From Microgenomates group bacterium RBG_16_45_19 (GTDB taxonomy: Bacteria; Patescibacteriota; Microgenomatia; UBA1400; RBG-16-45-19), in the NCBI GenBank assembly GCA_001803415.1, contig MHDC01000023.1, positions 1 through 58,122 on the forward strand: a stretch of DNA of 58,122 nucleotides, written 5' to 3'. The translations under genes and the position numbers were made by a program. Numbering within the stretch: position 1 is the first letter of the stretch; every line of letters begins with the position of its first letter. Shown here in pieces: positions 8,778 through 42,940 of the stretch. The notes under the pieces are model-generated. The model saw only the letters and a program-made list of their open reading frames with translations, had not been told where the DNA came from and did no database searches.

Positions 8778-9812
8778 ATGATCTATCGCAAACCACGGTT
8801 GGATGAAGAAGCCGCGTATGATCGGTTGGTGAAACACCCGCTGCAAAGCCGGGCTTGGGGTAATTTTAGAGAAAATAACGGGGTAAGCTTAGAGCGATTG
8901 ATCGGATTTGAAGGCAACCGGATGATTAATCAAATGCAAGTGACTTTCCACCCGATCCCCAAACTGCCGTATATGATCGGTTATTATCCGAAAGGAAGCT
9001 GGCCGGACGAGAGTGCCCTGCAAGCGTTAAAGGAAATCGGCAAAAGAGAGAAGGCCATATTCGTCAAGCTCGAACCGGATGTGTCGGTACCACCTTACCA
9101 AGAGACCGATTTAAACCAATTGCAGGAATTCCTGTTAAAGCACGGCTGCCGTAGCGGCCGACCGCTGTTTACGCCCTACAGCTTTATCATTGATTTGACC
9201 AAAAGTGAAGATGAGTTAATCGTCGAGATGAAAGCGAAAACGCGCTACAACGTTAAAGTAGCGATGAAACACGGAGTCCAAGTGGTCGAAGACAGCAGTG
9301 ATCAGGGGTTTAATGAATATCTGGAGTTATTGTCGTTGACGACGAAACGACAGAAATTTTTTGCCCACACCCAGCAATATCAGCGACAGATGTGGCAACA
9401 CATGAAGGGAGCGGGCATGGCTCATTTGCTCAAAGCCACCTATCAGGGGGAAACTATGGTGGTCTGGGTTCTGTTTAAATTGGGTCAGCGACTGTTTTAC
9501 CCCTATGGGGCCTCAAGCCGGAAACACCGGGAAGTGATGGCTTCTAACCTGCTGATGTGGGAAGCAATGCGCTGGGGTAAAAAAAGCGGCTGTACCAGTT
9601 TTGATTTGTGGGGGTCTTTGGGTCCCCAGGCCGATCCCAAAGATCCGTGGTACGGTTTCCATAAGTTTAAAGAGGGCTACGGCGGGATTTTAGCCAAGTT
9701 TGTGGGTTCGTATGACTTGGTGATAGATGCCAAGCTTTATAAACTGTTCCGGATTGGGGACCGGTGGCGATGGCAATGGCTGCGGTTTAAAAGCAAATTA
9801 TGGCGGAATTGA
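8778..9812 (+). CDS. FemAB/FemX-family peptidoglycan interpeptide-bridge ligase
   Basis: HPLQSRAW, KTRYNVKVA, YPYGASS, LLMWEAM, FDLWG, FKEGYGG. Confidence 0.85.
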   Translation: MIYRKPRLDEEAAYDRLVKHPLQSRAWGNFRENNGVSLERLIGFEGNRMINQMQVTFHPIPKLPYMIGYYPKGSWPDESALQALKEIGKREKAIFVKLEPDVSVPPYQETDLNQLQEFLLKHGCRSGRPLFTPYSFIIDLTKSEDELIVEMKAKTRYNVKVAMKHGVQVVEDSSDQGFNEYLELLSLTTKRQKFFAHTQQYQRQMWQHMKGAGMAHLLKATYQGETMVVWVLFKLGQRLFYPYGASSRKHREVMASNLLMWEAMRWGKKSGCTSFDLWGSLGPQADPKDPWYGFHKFKEGYGGILAKFVGSYDLVIDAKLYKLFRIGDRWRWQWLRFKSKLWRN

Positions 9813-10720
9813 GACAGTCTTCTAATCACGCGGCGTACATGCGGTTGATTGGCTGGACGGTAGAAGAAAAGAATGGGTTAAAAGCCTATGCTCGGAAATT
9901 ACCGCTGCTGCCAGTGGGGGTAATAAAGATTCAGCGGGTGCCTGTCAAACAATTAAATCGCGAATGGATCGAAGGATTGGTTAAAAAACACCGGGCGGTA
10001 GCTTGTCATATAGAGATAGATGAGAGGGTAAGAGCGGGAGTGAACCAAGCTAGTCCAACAACCGAGTTCGCCAAAAGACTTGAACCGGTAATCAAGACCA
10101 TGAAAGCGTGGGGATATAAACCGGAAAAACTGGGGATGTTGGCGTCCAAAACCCAAGTGATCGACTTAAAGCTAAGTCAGGCTAAGCTCTTAAAACAAAT
10201 GAAAAGTAAAACCCGTTATAACTTGGGTTTAGCCCAAAGACGGGGACTAACCGCGAGAGTAGTAAATGGACAGGAATTATTAGTCAATGAGGGTTGGCTG
10301 GTGGATTTTTTGAAACTAATCCGCGATAATTACCGACGGGTGAATTTCTGGGGAGGGACTGAAAGTTGGCTTAAGGCTCACTTAAAAGCGTTTGGGAAAG
10401 AGGCTTACCTGGTGATGGTCGATGGCGAAGACCAGTTGGTGGCAGCGGCCTTATTTATGACCGCCGACGGGATTAGTTATTATTCACATAACGGATCGAC
10501 GGCGGTTGGCCGACGATTGATGGGGCCAACTTTGGCGGTCTGGACGGGCATGGTGGAAGCCAAACGGCGCCGGTTGCAGACTTTGGATTTTGATGGCGTT
10601 TATGACGAACGTTTTCCGGTGAAACGGTGGCTAGGGTATACCCGGTTTAAAGCTGGCTTTGGCGGCGACTATGTCTGGTACCCCCCAGCCTTGGTCAAAT
10701 GGCTCCCCGGTATCTTTTAG
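9800..10720 (+). CDS. Second FemAB/FemX-family ligase
   Basis: KTRYNLGLA, LDFDG, FKAGFGG; overlaps the upstream paralog by 13 nt. Confidence 0.8.
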   Translation: MAELRQSSNHAAYMRLIGWTVEEKNGLKAYARKLPLLPVGVIKIQRVPVKQLNREWIEGLVKKHRAVACHIEIDERVRAGVNQASPTTEFAKRLEPVIKTMKAWGYKPEKLGMLASKTQVIDLKLSQAKLLKQMKSKTRYNLGLAQRRGLTARVVNGQELLVNEGWLVDFLKLIRDNYRRVNFWGGTESWLKAHLKAFGKEAYLVMVDGEDQLVAAALFMTADGISYYSHNGSTAVGRRLMGPTLAVWTGMVEAKRRRLQTLDFDGVYDERFPVKRWLGYTRFKAGFGGDYVWYPPALVKWLPGIF

Positions 10721-36231: not shown

Positions 36232-37337
36232 ATGAGTCACTCTTAGAGTTATGGCAGTGGATGTGGCAGCCGTTACTGGTGGCCGGAATGACGGCTGTGA
36301 CCACCGCCCCGATGGTGATCGCTTGGTACAAACGCCGCGGTTGGTTGGATGACCCAGCCACCCAGAAACAGGCTAAGGTAGTCCACACTTACCCAGTACC
36401 CAGAGGGGGTGGCTGGGTCATTTTCATCGCCTTGGTGGTGGGGACTCTATGGTTTTTGGGTATAGACAAGCATAGCTTCGGCGTGTTGTTGGGAGCTTCG
36501 ATCATCGCCGTGACCGGATTTTTCGATGACCGCTATGACCTGAACCCCTATTTAAGATTGGGATTAGGCTTTTTAGCCGCCGGAGCGGTGGTAGCGGCCG
36601 GCATCGGGATCGCCTATATCACTAATCCTTTGGGTCAAGGTGTGATCCACCTGAATTTACCGCAAATCCCCTTCTATTTAGGGGGCAAGTTGCACACAAT
36701 CTGGGTGTTAGCTGACGCCTTAGCCTTGTTATGGATCGTTTGGTGTATGAATATGATTAATTGGTCTAAAGGACTGGATGGCCAACTGCCGGGCATGGTG
36801 GTGATCGCCGCGATAGTCATCGGGGCGTTGTCGTTGAGATTTGGGGACGACGTGACTCAATGGTCAGTGATTATCTTGGCGGCGATCACAGCCGGAGCTT
36901 ACTTGGGCTTTTTACCGTGGAACATCTACCCTCAAAAAATGATGCCCGGTTATGGTGGGGGGGCACTGGCTGGTTACCTGTTAGCGGTGTTATCAATTCT
37001 TTCCGGAGCCAAGCTGGCGACTTTAATCCTAGTCTTAGCCGTGCCAATGATCGACGCGCTGTACGTGATGGTTCGCCGCTTAAGGCGGGGTCGGTCGCCG
37101 GTATGGGGTGATCGGAGCCATTTCCACCATAAGCTGATGGAATTAGGTTGGAGTAAGCGCAAAATTGCCGGATTTTACTGGCTAATGACTTTGATTTTAG
37201 GGATTGTCGCCCTGCAATTGAATACCAGGCAAAAAGCGTTTACAATCCTGTTAATGCTGCTCGGATTTGGAGCGGTACTAATATGGGTAAATTGGTTTAT
37301 AACCTCATCAAATCGGCCAGGCCGCGCCAATGGCTAA
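36228..37337 (+). CDS. WecA/TagO-type polyprenyl-phosphate HexNAc-1-phosphate transferase (MraY superfamily)
   Basis: PRGGG, GFFDD, INWSKGLDG, WNIYP, DRSHFHH. Confidence 0.9.
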   Translation: MNESLLELWQWMWQPLLVAGMTAVTTAPMVIAWYKRRGWLDDPATQKQAKVVHTYPVPRGGGWVIFIALVVGTLWFLGIDKHSFGVLLGASIIAVTGFFDDRYDLNPYLRLGLGFLAAGAVVAAGIGIAYITNPLGQGVIHLNLPQIPFYLGGKLHTIWVLADALALLWIVWCMNMINWSKGLDGQLPGMVVIAAIVIGALSLRFGDDVTQWSVIILAAITAGAYLGFLPWNIYPQKMMPGYGGGALAGYLLAVLSILSGAKLATLILVLAVPMIDALYVMVRRLRRGRSPVWGDRSHFHHKLMELGWSKRKIAGFYWLMTLILGIVALQLNTRQKAFTILLMLLGFGAVLIWVNWFITSSNRPGRANG

Positions 37338-38221
37338 AAAACGGAGCCATGTTTGCGCCGTTAGTTTTTAGCGGACTGCTGTTTGCCCCCGGTTATTTGG
37401 CTCAAGTGATGGAAGCGTTTATCCTGTTTTGTGGTTTAACGTCGGCAGTCTACCTGATCAACGACATCATGGATGTGCAGCAGGATAAAAAACATCCGTT
37501 TAAAAAGAAACGACCGATTGCGTCCGGGGACTTACCGATTCCGATGGCGATTTTTGCGGTGGTGGCGTTGTTATTCAGCGTCATGGCATTGGCCTGGTTT
37601 TTATCGTACTTTTTCTTTGCCATCTGTTTATTATACCTCTTACTGAGCCTGGCTTATTCGGGTTACTTAAAGCAAATCGCCATCATCGATTTATTGGCGA
37701 TCGCGGCCGGATTTGTGTTGCGGGTCTACGCCGGAGCGATTGTAGTCAACCTGCATATGAACGTTTGGTTTTTATTGGCGGTGGTTAGCTTGGCCTTATT
37801 TTTGGCCGTGGGCAAACGGCAGTGCGAGCGGACCTTACTCACCGGGTTGGTGGGAAACTTAACCGGCCAGCGGTCGACTTTAAGCCATTATTCAGCCCGC
37901 CTGCTGGACATCTATACAGCCTTGTTTGCCGGGGCAACCTGGCTAACTTACGCTCTGTTTGCCTTTCAGCATCAATTTGAATTTATCGAAGGGCCGGTAC
38001 CAACGCTATTATCCCGGGTGCCGCGGACGTTTATCTCGTCAAAATGGCTGATGTTTACCGTACCGTTGGTGATTTACGGAGTGATGCGCTATTTACAACT
38101 GGTTTACGAAAGAAACGAGGGTGAAAGCCCGGAACGGGTGTTACTTAACGACAAACCCATGCTAATCGCGGTGGTGATTTGGATTTTGATGGTCCTGTTT
38201 ATTCTTTACGGGATGAGGTGA
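37283..38221 (+). CDS. UbiA-family decaprenyl-phosphate phosphoribosyltransferase-like protein
   Basis: RPRQWLKN, YLINDIMD, HPFKKKRPIASG, YSGYLKQI, GKR, YGVMRY. Confidence 0.85.
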   Translation: MGKLVYNLIKSARPRQWLKNGAMFAPLVFSGLLFAPGYLAQVMEAFILFCGLTSAVYLINDIMDVQQDKKHPFKKKRPIASGDLPIPMAIFAVVALLFSVMALAWFLSYFFFAICLLYLLLSLAYSGYLKQIAIIDLLAIAAGFVLRVYAGAIVVNLHMNVWFLLAVVSLALFLAVGKRQCERTLLTGLVGNLTGQRSTLSHYSARLLDIYTALFAGATWLTYALFAFQHQFEFIEGPVPTLLSRVPRTFISSKWLMFTVPLVIYGVMRYLQLVYERNEGESPERVLLNDKPMLIAVVIWILMVLFILYGMR

Positions 38222-39148
38222 CAGTTGGTGGACTTGGCCCTTACCTTGAACAGAAGGCTGGTTAGTGGCCAGATCGATAGTGACGGCGGTTTGTTCATCA
38301 ATCCCCCAAATTAAATGGTTGACCGGGAGTAATTTTTGGAGTTTAAGATAGCGACGGCGGCCCATGAAACAATAGGAGGTATCGGTTTTCCTCCCACCTT
38401 CAGTATTATTAAGATGGGGAATGACGGTTAATTCTTTAAACAGATGGTTAAAACCATTTAAACCGGTTTGCCAGTGGAGGAGAGAACCGACTTTATAGAT
38501 TTCATAGACCGGTAAAGCAAATTTAGAGAAAGCGATGGTGGCCGCTGAAGAGAGGGACAAACTAGCTTGACCAGTTTTAAGCCGTTGAACCAAGGCGCTA
38601 TACAGCAAGGTATTTTGGAGATGATTGACAGCATAAGTCGGACTACCAGGACCAGTAAAAATGTAATCGGCGGTGTAAAGAGGCTCAATTAATTGCGGTT
38701 GATTAGCTTGGTCACGATGATTGGCAAAGATGCTGGTAACTTGGGGGTGAAAGTTGGGGAGTTTGGCTAAAAAAAAGCGGCGAATCTCCCCGTAGACAGC
38801 TCGGACATTAGGTTGAAAGCCGGCCGGGGTCGAAATTAAGACAATTTTAACCGAGGATTTGCCTAATAAAGTGAGGGCATGCTCATGTATCTGGCGGCCG
38901 ACGGAGGAAATTTCACCTGAACCAAAGAGAGTTAAGGTGGCAGTTTTAATCATCGAGGCGGCAGACTTAAGACTAGAACCAGTTGGCGTGTCTTGAATTT
39001 GATATCCTAAAGCCTCGATTTTTAGCCGGAGCCGATCAGCTTGACGGAAAGCTTTTTGCCAGCGGTAAGTTTGGCGAAGCTGAGCTAAGCGTTGAATTTC
39101 AGGCGGAAACTGGCTGACAGGAGACGTAACGTGACGACTAGACTTCAT
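38162..39148 (-). CDS. CysRS C-terminal-like domain fused to a peptidase S51/cyanophycinase-like domain
   Basis: N-terminus RQ..RWQKAFRQADRLRLKIEALGYQIQDTPTG; then GSGE, FTGPGSP, SSAA, VIPH, GIDEQTA. Confidence 0.75.
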   Translation of the reverse strand: MKSSRHVTSPVSQFPPEIQRLAQLRQTYRWQKAFRQADRLRLKIEALGYQIQDTPTGSSLKSAASMIKTATLTLFGSGEISSVGRQIHEHALTLLGKSSVKIVLISTPAGFQPNVRAVYGEIRRFFLAKLPNFHPQVTSIFANHRDQANQPQLIEPLYTADYIFTGPGSPTYAVNHLQNTLLYSALVQRLKTGQASLSLSSAATIAFSKFALPVYEIYKVGSLLHWQTGLNGFNHLFKELTVIPHLNNTEGGRKTDTSYCFMGRRRYLKLQKLLPVNHLIWGIDEQTAVTIDLATNQPSVQGKGQVHQLSPHPVKNKQDHQNPNHHRD

Positions 39149-41035: not shown

Positions 41036-42940
41036 TTAGGGAGCGGAAAGAGTGGCGTAGAGAGCGGTAAGTTGCTGGCTCATGAGGCGGTGGATTTGAG
41101 GAGTGATGACTTTTTTAGCCAAGAGGGTATCCAGAGCACTGGTTTGGCGAGAGAGAATTAGCAACCCGGTAGTCCGTGACAGACGGTACATGGTCTCAAT
41201 TTTGTTGATCACGACCTGGAAAACGTTGTGGGCGCTCCAAGTCAGCCAACGATCACGATAAAGGGCATTGATCAGCTGCTTGAAACTGGCAAAAGTGACC
41301 GGTTGAGTCAAGTTAGTATCGCCAGCAGTTTGGTTAAAATAAGTCAGGGTATAGAGGTGAGGTAAAGTATCAGGTAGGTAGACTTCCTCTTTAAACAACT
41401 TGAAGTTTCCTTCCTGGTCATAAGCGTAAACTTCAAAGTGATACCAACCGGGTTGAGGTGCGGTTAGTTCTAGAATATAGGCACCGGCCTGAGGATATTT
41501 AACTGAGAGTGACCAGAAAGGATCAGCAACCGAGTCGGTTTCATCCAGCCGATTGGCCAAGGGGTATTCCAGGTCGAAGGTGGAGAGGGGAATGGCCTCA
41601 ACCAGATCGCTACCAGCGTGACCAGTAGTTTGATCAGCGGGATCAGTCAGACGGATTTTGAGAGCGTCGTCGGCGTGGAGGTAAAGGAAACTCAAATCGG
41701 AGTTAGTGGGGTAGTAATGGCCGACGCGAGTCAAAACTTCGGGAGGAAGGTTAAAGAGGGTTTTGGATTCATCCCAAGGATCGTTGATCGCGTATTGACG
41801 CACAGGTGACTCAGCTTCTTGACTATGAGCGACCACAAAATGAGTGTTGCTGGCTAAGCGCTGGCGGAAGATAAGCGGCTGGTGGTCAACCTCCAGGAGA
41901 TCATGGATCCGACTAGTGTTACTGGCGGCAATGACTTCGTATTCCAATTTGGGATAGCCGGGATCCAGATCGTGCAGCTGTCGGGCAATCCGGGTTAAAG
42001 CGCTCCAGTTAACGATACCGCTGCGCCACCAACCATCAGTGTTCTGGGGTAAGTTGAGCCATTGGTTGAGAGAACCGGGATTAAGATCGACTAAATTGGC
42101 GCCAAAGGGAAGTTTATCAATTCCATAATAACGCAAAACCATGACGGCGCTGGAGAGAGCACAGCCAACCTGACTAATGGTGCGGTTTAGATTGTCATAC
42201 TGGTCACCGCCCCATTGGGGATTATGTTGGCTGTAGTAAGGGACGGTTGGTAAAGGAGTTGGGGTCGGCTCCGGTTCCGAAAGGTCGTAAACCTTGATGT
42301 TGTCAAAATATACCCCTGAGGGTATTACACTACCTGCTCCAACCCGCACTCCAATACTGCCAGATAAATAAGGACTATTATTATCAACAAATTCCAGTAG
42401 CTTAGTAAAATCGCTGTCACTTTCTGTCTTAATGAAAACTGTAATTTTGTTTCCGACTAACTCGATCCTCCATCTATAAGTAACATTGTTTTGGAAATTA
42501 TATGTTGTCGTTGGCGGTGAATTTAACACACCGTAAGCTTTCCCAAGATACACACCATTTCCACTTACATGAACTTCATAAAACTTATCAAGTAAGGAAG
42601 AATTTGTATCTTTTATATAGCGAAAGGGTATATTTTTATCTGCTCCTGAAACTGCGACCATATCTAATTCATACGCGTAGTCTGACCAATTCTCTGAACC
42701 GCTCACGGAATTCCCAGTTTGTCCTACTTGATTAACAATCATTCCATATGCGTTATTTACAATTGCCCAATTCCCGGTTGTATCTGCCCCATTGAAATGT
42801 CTTGGAGTCCACACATTATCGAAGCCATTATCAAAATCTTCTGAATACAATTCATCACCGTAAGCTGCGTATGCTATAGAATTACTTCTTAAGAGAGCCA
42901 ATAACGTACAAGCAAATATTAGGGAAGATATTTTAAGCAT
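41036..42940 (-). CDS. Secreted protein: lectin/DUF1080-like beta-sandwich plus C39-like cysteine peptidase
   Basis: Signal peptide; WSDY...FDNIKV domain; PEPTPTP linker; YSQHNPQW, GCALSS, HFVV, INDP. Confidence 0.75.
   Translation of the reverse strand: MLKISSLIFACTLLALLRSNSIAYAAYGDELYSEDFDNGFDNVWTPRHFNGADTTGNWAIVNNAYGMIVNQVGQTGNSVSGSENWSDYAYELDMVAVSGADKNIPFRYIKDTNSSLLDKFYEVHVSGNGVYLGKAYGVLNSPPTTTYNFQNNVTYRWRIELVGNKITVFIKTESDSDFTKLLEFVDNNSPYLSGSIGVRVGAGSVIPSGVYFDNIKVYDLSEPEPTPTPLPTVPYYSQHNPQWGGDQYDNLNRTISQVGCALSSAVMVLRYYGIDKLPFGANLVDLNPGSLNQWLNLPQNTDGWWRSGIVNWSALTRIARQLHDLDPGYPKLEYEVIAASNTSRIHDLLEVDHQPLIFRQRLASNTHFVVAHSQEAESPVRQYAINDPWDESKTLFNLPPEVLTRVGHYYPTNSDLSFLYLHADDALKIRLTDPADQTTGHAGSDLVEAIPLSTFDLEYPLANRLDETDSVADPFWSLSVKYPQAGAYILELTAPQPGWYHFEVYAYDQEGNFKLFKEEVYLPDTLPHLYTLTYFNQTAGDTNLTQPVTFASFKQLINALYRDRWLTWSAHNVFQVVINKIETMYRLSRTTGLLILSRQTSALDTLLAKKVITPQIHRLMSQQLTALYATLSAP

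Follow-up and report, generated by a model that had tools for sequence, protein, structure and literature searches.

We analysed contig MHDC01000023.1 of assembly GCA_001803415.1, from Microgenomates group bacterium RBG_16_45_19, as one stretch of DNA covering positions 1-58,122 of the forward strand (hereafter the window). The gene under study, referred to here as the target, is an open reading frame (ORF) at 38162..39148 on the minus strand that encodes 328 amino acids (aa) and a stop codon, and its product joins a domain resembling the C-terminal domain of cysteinyl-tRNA synthetase (CysRS), named CysS_C, to a domain resembling the S51 peptidases. The first of these, at residues 13-62 (38963..39112, minus strand), is an α/β copy of the CysRS C-terminal anticodon-binding domain that was delineated by profiles, the structural model and pairwise alignment. 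The second, at residues 66-312 (38213..38953, minus strand), has an S51 (PepE/cyanophycinase-like) fold that was delineated by profiles, fold search and conservation. The predicted catalytic residues of the S51 domain are encoded on the same strand by a TCA codon at 38546..38548 (Ser201, predicted nucleophile), a CAT codon at 38414..38416 (His245, predicted general base) and a GAA codon at 38294..38296 (Glu285, predicted third member of the triad).

The original prediction, made from the sequence of the window, had placed a CysRS C-terminal motif at about residues 17-58 of the target, and comparisons with profiles and structures bore this out. Taken alone, the protein stayed below the threshold of Pfam CysS_C (PF23493; E=0.14 over residues 13-55, 12.7 bits against a 23-bit threshold) and matched the NCBIfam CysRS model PRK14536 at E=0.008 (residues 15-60 on profile positions 442-487 of 490), but PF23493 was matched by 18 of the 24 aligned homologues (best 2.8e-9) and the family profile matched five CysRS structures over their final ~45 residues (best 3tqo, E=3.5e-6). 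Residues 8-65 were also aligned with the C-terminus of the host CysRS with 38% identity over 58 aa (E=1e-11). In the AlphaFold model, residues 16-62 form a helix (16-30), a second helix (34-46) and a β hairpin (49-54 and 57-62), the same helix-helix-hairpin arrangement as in the C-terminal domain of CysRS (E. coli residues ~406-461; 1u0b, 1li5; PF23493).

In E. coli CysRS, the GCA anticodon is contacted by R423, R427, W432, D436 and R439 according to analyses of PDB 1u0b (PMC12684709, PMC13449415). With residue numbers taken from the K-12 sequence record, these five correspond to R25, R29, F34, D38 and R41 of the target, and G446 and D451 to G48 and D53. Conservation was counted over 324 distinct family proteins from several phyla, 308-309 of which covered the positions of the anticodon domain. 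D38 and D53 were found in 309/309 proteins, R25 in 306/308, R41 in 307/309 and R29 in 299/309, and position 34 was always W, F or Y (309/309). The assignment of the module as a candidate reader of the tRNA-Cys anticodon was thereby strengthened, with every reported E. coli anticodon contact having an invariant or near-invariant counterpart. Judged by these residues, the N-terminal module is an anticodon-binding domain captured from CysRS and retains the positions expected to read G34-C35-A36, and we infer that it docks the target on tRNA-Cys. While CysRS keeps its catalytic body, the target has no Rossmann catalytic domain, HIGH or KMSKS motif or zinc site, and no match to the class I catalytic domain PF01406 was found in the target or the 24 homologues. 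Whereas CysRS and the Chloroflexota form of the family carry the anticodon domain at the C-terminus, the target has it at the N-terminus. Some databases name homologues 'cysteinyl-tRNA synthetase', which is a misannotation because proteins without the catalytic domain cannot aminoacylate.

For the remainder of the protein, Pfam S51 (PF03575) had no match in the target alone at E<=10 and was matched by 19 of the 24 homologues at E<=0.01 (best 1.3e-8), and PDB entry 6nqc was matched at E=1e-4 by the target alone and at 6.9e-11 by the family profile. The AlphaFold model, which was built on the homologue alignment, had a mean predicted local distance difference test score (pLDDT) of 86.5 and a predicted template modelling score (pTM) of 0.80, with an α/β domain following residue 62. 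A Foldseek search with this model matched 6nqc at 5e-14, cyanophycinase at ~5e-11 and PepE at 3e-7 to 2e-5, and all of the matches below 1e-3 were S51 proteins (6nqc, 3en0, 7uqw, 7uqv, 7ffp, 7c9b, 6a4r, 6a4t, 6iru and 1fy2), the PepE structures among them coming from four organisms. The proposed S51-like domain was therefore upheld, the model matching every solved S51 enzyme.

The serine (SSAA), histidine (VIPH) and glutamate (GIDE) that had been put forward as catalytic candidates are S201, H245 and E285, and each of them held up as invariant in 324/324 family proteins. H245 and E285 were aligned with PepE His157 and Glu192 in a weak hhalign alignment (Prob 16%), in which S201 fell one residue off PepE Ser120; in the comparison with 6nqc, S201 was aligned with the serine of its SAG motif (HMMER), H245 with its PHFN motif and E285 with its GIDE motif. 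The invariant motifs of this part were FGSGE, TPAGFQPN, GPGSPTY, (A/S)SAA, LPVYEIYKVG, PHxNNxEGGxKxDTS and GIDE, with ~25 further near-invariant positions including E79, T107, N114, G168, S169, Y172, E216, K219, W226, N248, D256, T257 and R266. The target is thus apparently an active serine hydrolase of the S51 fold with an intact Ser201-His245-Glu285 triad.

The fold and triad motifs are shared with PepE (1fy2, 6a4r), CphB (3en0, 7uqw) and the uncharacterised acI-B1 actinobacterial protein 6nqc. Unlike the S51 enzymes characterised so far, the target family has the private invariants TPAGFQPN, LPVYEIYKVG and NNxEGGxKxDTS, and unlike them it carries a tRNA anticodon-binding domain. The glycine-rich loop GPGSPTY of the target occupies the position of GGGNT in PepE, where cyanophycinase carries GGDQ. 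The family is a divergent sister group within S51 and not an equivalog of PepE or cyanophycinase. Database entries labelled 'cysteinyl-tRNA synthetase' or 'cyanophycinase-like exopeptidase' are corrected by this result. A cyanophycinase role is unlikely: NCBIfam cyanophycinase (TIGR02069) scored 23.3 bits against a cut-off of 126.6, and cyanophycin synthetase was not found in this genome (best 63 bits, cut-off 850). A likeness to CofD/YvcK (PF01933, E=0.12; 2ppv, E=0.09) was confined to the strand-loop 'ADYIFxGPGS' with no support from the fold search, and we regard it as a local motif resemblance.

We then mapped the architectures of the wider family. A word-indexed search among proteins of similar length gave 5921 homologues at E<=1e-3, many of which were pre-annotated with PF23493 and/or PF03575, and an exhaustive profile search found 414 clusters at 50% identity with E<=1e-30, where very few of the top 150 had the domain order of the window. 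When one genome per species was scanned, 578 relatives emerged; the 80 best were retained as loci, and their domains were mapped with custom hidden Markov models. Among these best 80 of 578, 60 loci, mostly from Chloroflexota, had the S51 domain, a conserved extension of ~50 residues and then CysS_C, and the CysS_C-S51 order was that of Patescibacteria, including the window. Long forms of 415-420 aa in Desulfobacterales also had S51 followed by CysS_C, with a CysRS-derived part matching E. coli residues 357-460. A length-shifted search with Pfam scans further found triple fusions of S51, CysS_C and GT2 (P0146, P0155 and P0168, 578-611 aa, and locus L107:8001-9746). Fusions of a full-length CysRS to S51 were absent from the 120 proteins listed in this search and from the sample of the window's class described below. 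The GT2 domain of these fusions had only a generic likeness to the GT2 proteins of the window (<=25-30% identity) and was rejected as their orthologue.

In a tree of the S51 domain, 46 of the 52 forms with N-terminal CysS_C fell in one clade (support 0.991), none of them lay inside the clade that the forms with C-terminal CysS_C span together with the GT2 fusions, and 12 of the 14 triple fusions formed a clade of their own (12/14 in one clade, support 0.999). Given these separate clades, both domain orders are old and stable, and since the pairing was kept while the order changed, the two domains are probably linked in function and not joined by accident. By the standard of this conservation, the target is a real two-domain protein with both domains under selection. 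We found no paper linking S51 to a CysRS domain or to tRNA, or mentioning the fusion; the family is conserved and unstudied.

Several minor observations were made along with these architectures. Single examples of S51 plus CysS_C carried an additional N-terminal part, an α/β hydrolase (Abhydrolase_5) in P0124 (614 aa) and part of a TspO/MBR membrane domain in P0126 (458 aa). A divergent S51-only paralogue adjoined the family gene in Roizmanbacteria (L020:6981-7736, minus strand; E=7.5e-19 to the family profile), and another did so in a Desulfobacterales-type contig (L109:7281-7967, plus strand). At locus L107, a YbaK-type tRNA_edit gene was found ~4 kb upstream of the triple fusion.

The distribution of the family across genomes was patchy. 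The family was found in 50 of 201 sampled Chloroflexota genomes (25%) and in 15 of 301 genomes sampled from the class of the window (5%), in which carriers tended toward larger genomes, and the sample of the phylum Patescibacteria gave a single full-length match in 301 genomes (<1%), the genome of the window itself. The family was not found in the ~20 genomes of the window's order that were included in the class sample. These counts (1/301, 15/301 and none in ~20) rule out a core translation factor of Patescibacteria, and the target family is an accessory gene, not a core component of translation.

The genome, an assembly that is 87% complete, also encodes an intact CysRS and an ordinary tRNA-Cys. 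The check for an intact cysS elsewhere that had been advised with the original prediction found a CysRS of 498 aa with its own C-terminal domain on another contig (283 bits), and there was a single ordinary tRNA-Cys(GCA) with U73 and an acceptor stem made up of Watson-Crick pairs only (GGCCUGG/CCAGGCC). As CysRS is intact and tRNA-Cys is normal, the extra copy of the anticodon domain is not filling in for a missing part, and replacement of a truncated CysRS was ruled out. Mischarging of tRNA-Cys by AlaRS via a G:U pair in the acceptor stem was likewise unsupported, the stem having no such pair.

We next considered the genes found beside the family in its carriers. Five contigs with long forms were examined, two of which (Desulfobacterales-type) carried an operon of the S51-CysS_C gene, a FemAB-like Acetyltransf_6 gene, GT4 and PIG-L, one of them with two additional GFO/IDH/MocA oxidoreductases. 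GT4, PIG-L and an acyltransferase make up the gene set of mycothiol or bacillithiol synthesis, and in these two contigs the family gene holds the slot of the cysteine-adding enzyme (MshC, a CysRS paralogue, or BshC) beside GT4 (MshA/BshA-like), PIG-L (MshB/BshB-like) and the acyltransferase. In the Desulfobacterales-type loci, of ~17 kb, none of the called genes was a CysRS-like (MshC-type) ligase, and BshC was not searched by family. MshC has lost the anticodon domain but still has the catalytic domain of CysRS, and it works with ATP and free cysteine; the target is its reverse, with the anticodon domain only and a serine-hydrolase domain replacing the CysRS catalytic body. A mycothiol/bacillithiol-type operon is absent from the genome of the window.

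PIG-L was also found ~2 kb from the family gene in seven Caldilineaceae loci. Between other Patescibacteria carriers and non-carriers of the same order, PIG-L was present in 12/13 versus 6/16 genomes and an adjacent Acetyltransf_6-PIG-L pair, homologous between carriers and lying in a GT4/GT2 cluster, in 5-6/13 versus 0/16, a contrast that is confounded by phylogeny and genome size. This cluster was unlinked to the S51 gene. Two side observations concern the same cluster: it ends near peptidyl-tRNA hydrolase, and a conserved protein of ~460 aa without a Pfam match lies between GT2 and the Acetyltransf_6-PIG-L pair (L111:3757-5148 and its equivalents in L112-L114). No conserved neighbourhood of the family gene itself was seen in Patescibacteria, where the neighbours varied, for example the CCA-adding enzyme with NusA or the end of a ribosomal protein operon. 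In Chloroflexota, the recurring NAD-epimerase, 6PGDH-like dehydrogenase, ECF sigma/anti-sigma and YitT genes looked like lineage synteny and were rejected as a conserved functional neighbourhood.

From these features, we consider it possible, with a probability of roughly one in three, that the target is a cytoplasmic tRNA-Cys-directed acyl-transfer enzyme that moves cysteine from Cys-tRNA to an amine acceptor. The triad would probably act on something carried by tRNA-Cys. In the proposed mechanism, the CysS_C module would dock the enzyme on tRNA-Cys and Ser201 would attack the aminoacyl ester of Cys-tRNA(Cys), much as in S51 peptidases, whose acyl-enzyme carries an N-terminal aspartyl group with a free amine. 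The cysteinyl-enzyme would then be resolved by an amine acceptor, most plausibly a low-molecular-weight thiol precursor or a de-N-acetylated amino sugar in an envelope glycoconjugate, or else by water. Transfer is favoured over hydrolysis because GT2 fusions and GT4/PIG-L operons occur and because the family is accessory in its distribution. A narrower proposal, which we consider unlikely, makes the family a new class of transferase dependent on aminoacyl-tRNA: in Chloroflexota, Desulfobacterales and some Patescibacteria, it would select Cys-tRNA(Cys) by the anticodon, form a cysteinyl-serine intermediate and pass the cysteine to a de-N-acetylated amino sugar, thereby adding the cysteine of an undescribed low-molecular-weight thiol or of a cysteinylated envelope glycan.

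The chemistry proposed here would be that of FemXAB/MurM, L/F-transferase, MprF, the cyclodipeptide synthases and PEARL, all of which use aminoacyl-tRNA as an activated donor outside translation, but their folds differ from that of the target family and there is no homology between them. To our knowledge, non-ribosomal users of aminoacyl-tRNA comprise few classes that choose their tRNA mainly by the acceptor arm, and we know of none that uses a serine triad or is built on a peptidase fold. A family of ~400 clusters (at 50% identity) in which the S51 triad is joined, in two domain orders, to precisely those residues by which CysRS reads the anticodon points towards a use of tRNA-Cys that has gone unrecognised. 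If the target were a cysteinyl transferase, it would provide an ATP-independent, tRNA-dependent route to cysteine-containing metabolites and might reveal the redox thiol of Chloroflexota and their relatives.

A number of points weigh against acyl transfer. The anticodon and the CCA end of a tRNA are ~75 Å apart and the linker between the two domains of the target is ~8 residues long, so that it is not obvious how the protein could act in cis on the acceptor end; this end would probably have to be reached by a dimer binding tRNA across its subunits, as occurs in TyrRS, or by release and rebinding of the tRNA. S51-only relatives exist in Chloroflexia, Thermomicrobia and a few Patescibacteria, and three of the five long-form contigs, belonging to one syntenic lineage, were without the GT4/PIG-L operon. 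The genome of the window (87% complete) had no PIG-L, no Acetyltransf_6 of the partner type and no partner cluster. The target itself lies in a long run of envelope-glycan genes (GT2s, GT4s, a WecA-like transferase, a CE4 deacetylase, GH18, a flippase and a ROK kinase), and this neighbourhood was absent around the genes of the other carriers. The confounding of the carrier contrast counts on the same side, and in the operons, tRNA-dependent transfer could be the work of the FemAB-like partner.

The original prediction had offered a tRNA-targeted hydrolase or deacylase, or a tRNA-regulated peptidase, and these functions miss some features of the wider family. A free-standing proofreading or deacylating factor, in which CysS_C would select tRNA-Cys and the S51 triad would hydrolyse the wrong (sometimes the right) amino acid, has a domain logic identical to that of the proposed transferase, and S51 enzymes are hydrolases. 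YbaK/ProXp, AlaX and D-Tyr-tRNA deacylase resemble the family in having a hydrolytic domain aimed at one tRNA, with a patchy occurrence and with or without an extra tRNA-binding module; patchy spread along with versions lacking that module is typical of YbaK/ProX and AlaX. Their fold is unrelated, however, and the target family would select its tRNA by the anticodon and is associated with glycosyltransferase and deacetylase genes. No Pfam or NCBIfam match to the tRNA_edit, tRNA_SAD or DTD families was found in the target or in the 24 homologues. CysRS needs no editing, the acceptor stem of the host tRNA-Cys has no G:U pair that would invite mischarging by AlaRS, and the distance between anticodon and acceptor end applies equally to a deacylase. 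The GT2 fusions and the operons with GT4, PIG-L and FemAB-like genes would make little sense for an editing factor; taken with the permuted order and the patchy spread, they fit biosynthetic acyl transfer better than proofreading. We therefore hold deacylation to be improbable, though it would make the family the first editing factor dedicated to tRNA-Cys.

The position of the catalytic domain would suit a peptidase or amidase whose substrate is a small peptide or a cysteinyl or aspartyl conjugate, with CysS_C as a sensor of tRNA-Cys (for example of its charging state) or reused for a partner other than tRNA, as the short linker sets the S51 domain near the anticodon end and not the acceptor end. 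This explanation would also agree with the peptidase activity of all characterised S51 members (PepE and cyanophycinase) and with the S51-only relatives in the same subfamily. The strict conservation of the base-reading residues argues for specific recognition of GCA and not for a generic role, and the lack of a cyanophycin synthetase in this genome and the low TIGR02069 score (23 bits against 126.6) also count against a peptidase. No case of an S51 peptidase regulated by tRNA is known to us, although no literature search was aimed at this, and we regard this explanation as doubtful to the same degree as deacylation.

Considerably less probable is an enzyme that makes or removes a modification in the tRNA-Cys anticodon loop (positions 32-38 or nearby). 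The short tether would hold the catalytic domain close to this loop, and some relatives add GT2 directly after CysS_C, a family of which an animal member glycosylates queuosine-34. We know, however, of no amide- or ester-bearing modification of tRNA-Cys, the retained G34-reading residues imply an unmodified G34, and the S51-only forms and the PIG-L/GT4 operons would be left unexplained. Lastly, a decaying cysS fragment fused by accident to a peptidase gene without joint function, as the naming of some homologues after CysRS might suggest, is effectively refuted by conservation, given an open frame with a confident model, functional residues of both domains that are invariant across hundreds of clusters, two stable domain orders and a separate intact cysS in the genome.

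At its 3' end, the target has a low-confidence, lineage-specific tail formed by residues 313-328 and the stop codon (38162..38212, minus strand), the homologues stopping near residue 312. The pLDDT of the model is <50 over residues 316-327. This tail of 16 residues is atypical of the family, and the 3' end of the target overlaps that of a convergent UbiA-family gene (37283-38221) by 60 nt (38162-38221). Upstream, the target is separated by a gap of 12 nt from a PEGA/SH3 lipoprotein gene. Just upstream of the run formed by the ROK kinase, the PEGA/SH3 lipoprotein and the target, a protein of 634 aa with a signal-peptide-like N-terminus and no Pfam match is encoded at 41036-42940 (minus strand).

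Elsewhere in the window, two tandem FemAB-like genes (Pfam Acetyltransf_6) were found at 9237-10612. Their type was present in 29 of 30 sampled genomes of the class and differs from the higher-scoring Acetyltransf_6 subtype that is paired with PIG-L in other carriers, and the two are probably aminoacyl-tRNA-dependent enzymes of peptidoglycan bridge formation. Among the 36 tRNAs called by ARAGORN in the 87% complete assembly, there was a tRNA-Ile with the anticodon UAU and only one tRNA with the anticodon CAU, which suggests that AUA is read without lysidine in this genome.

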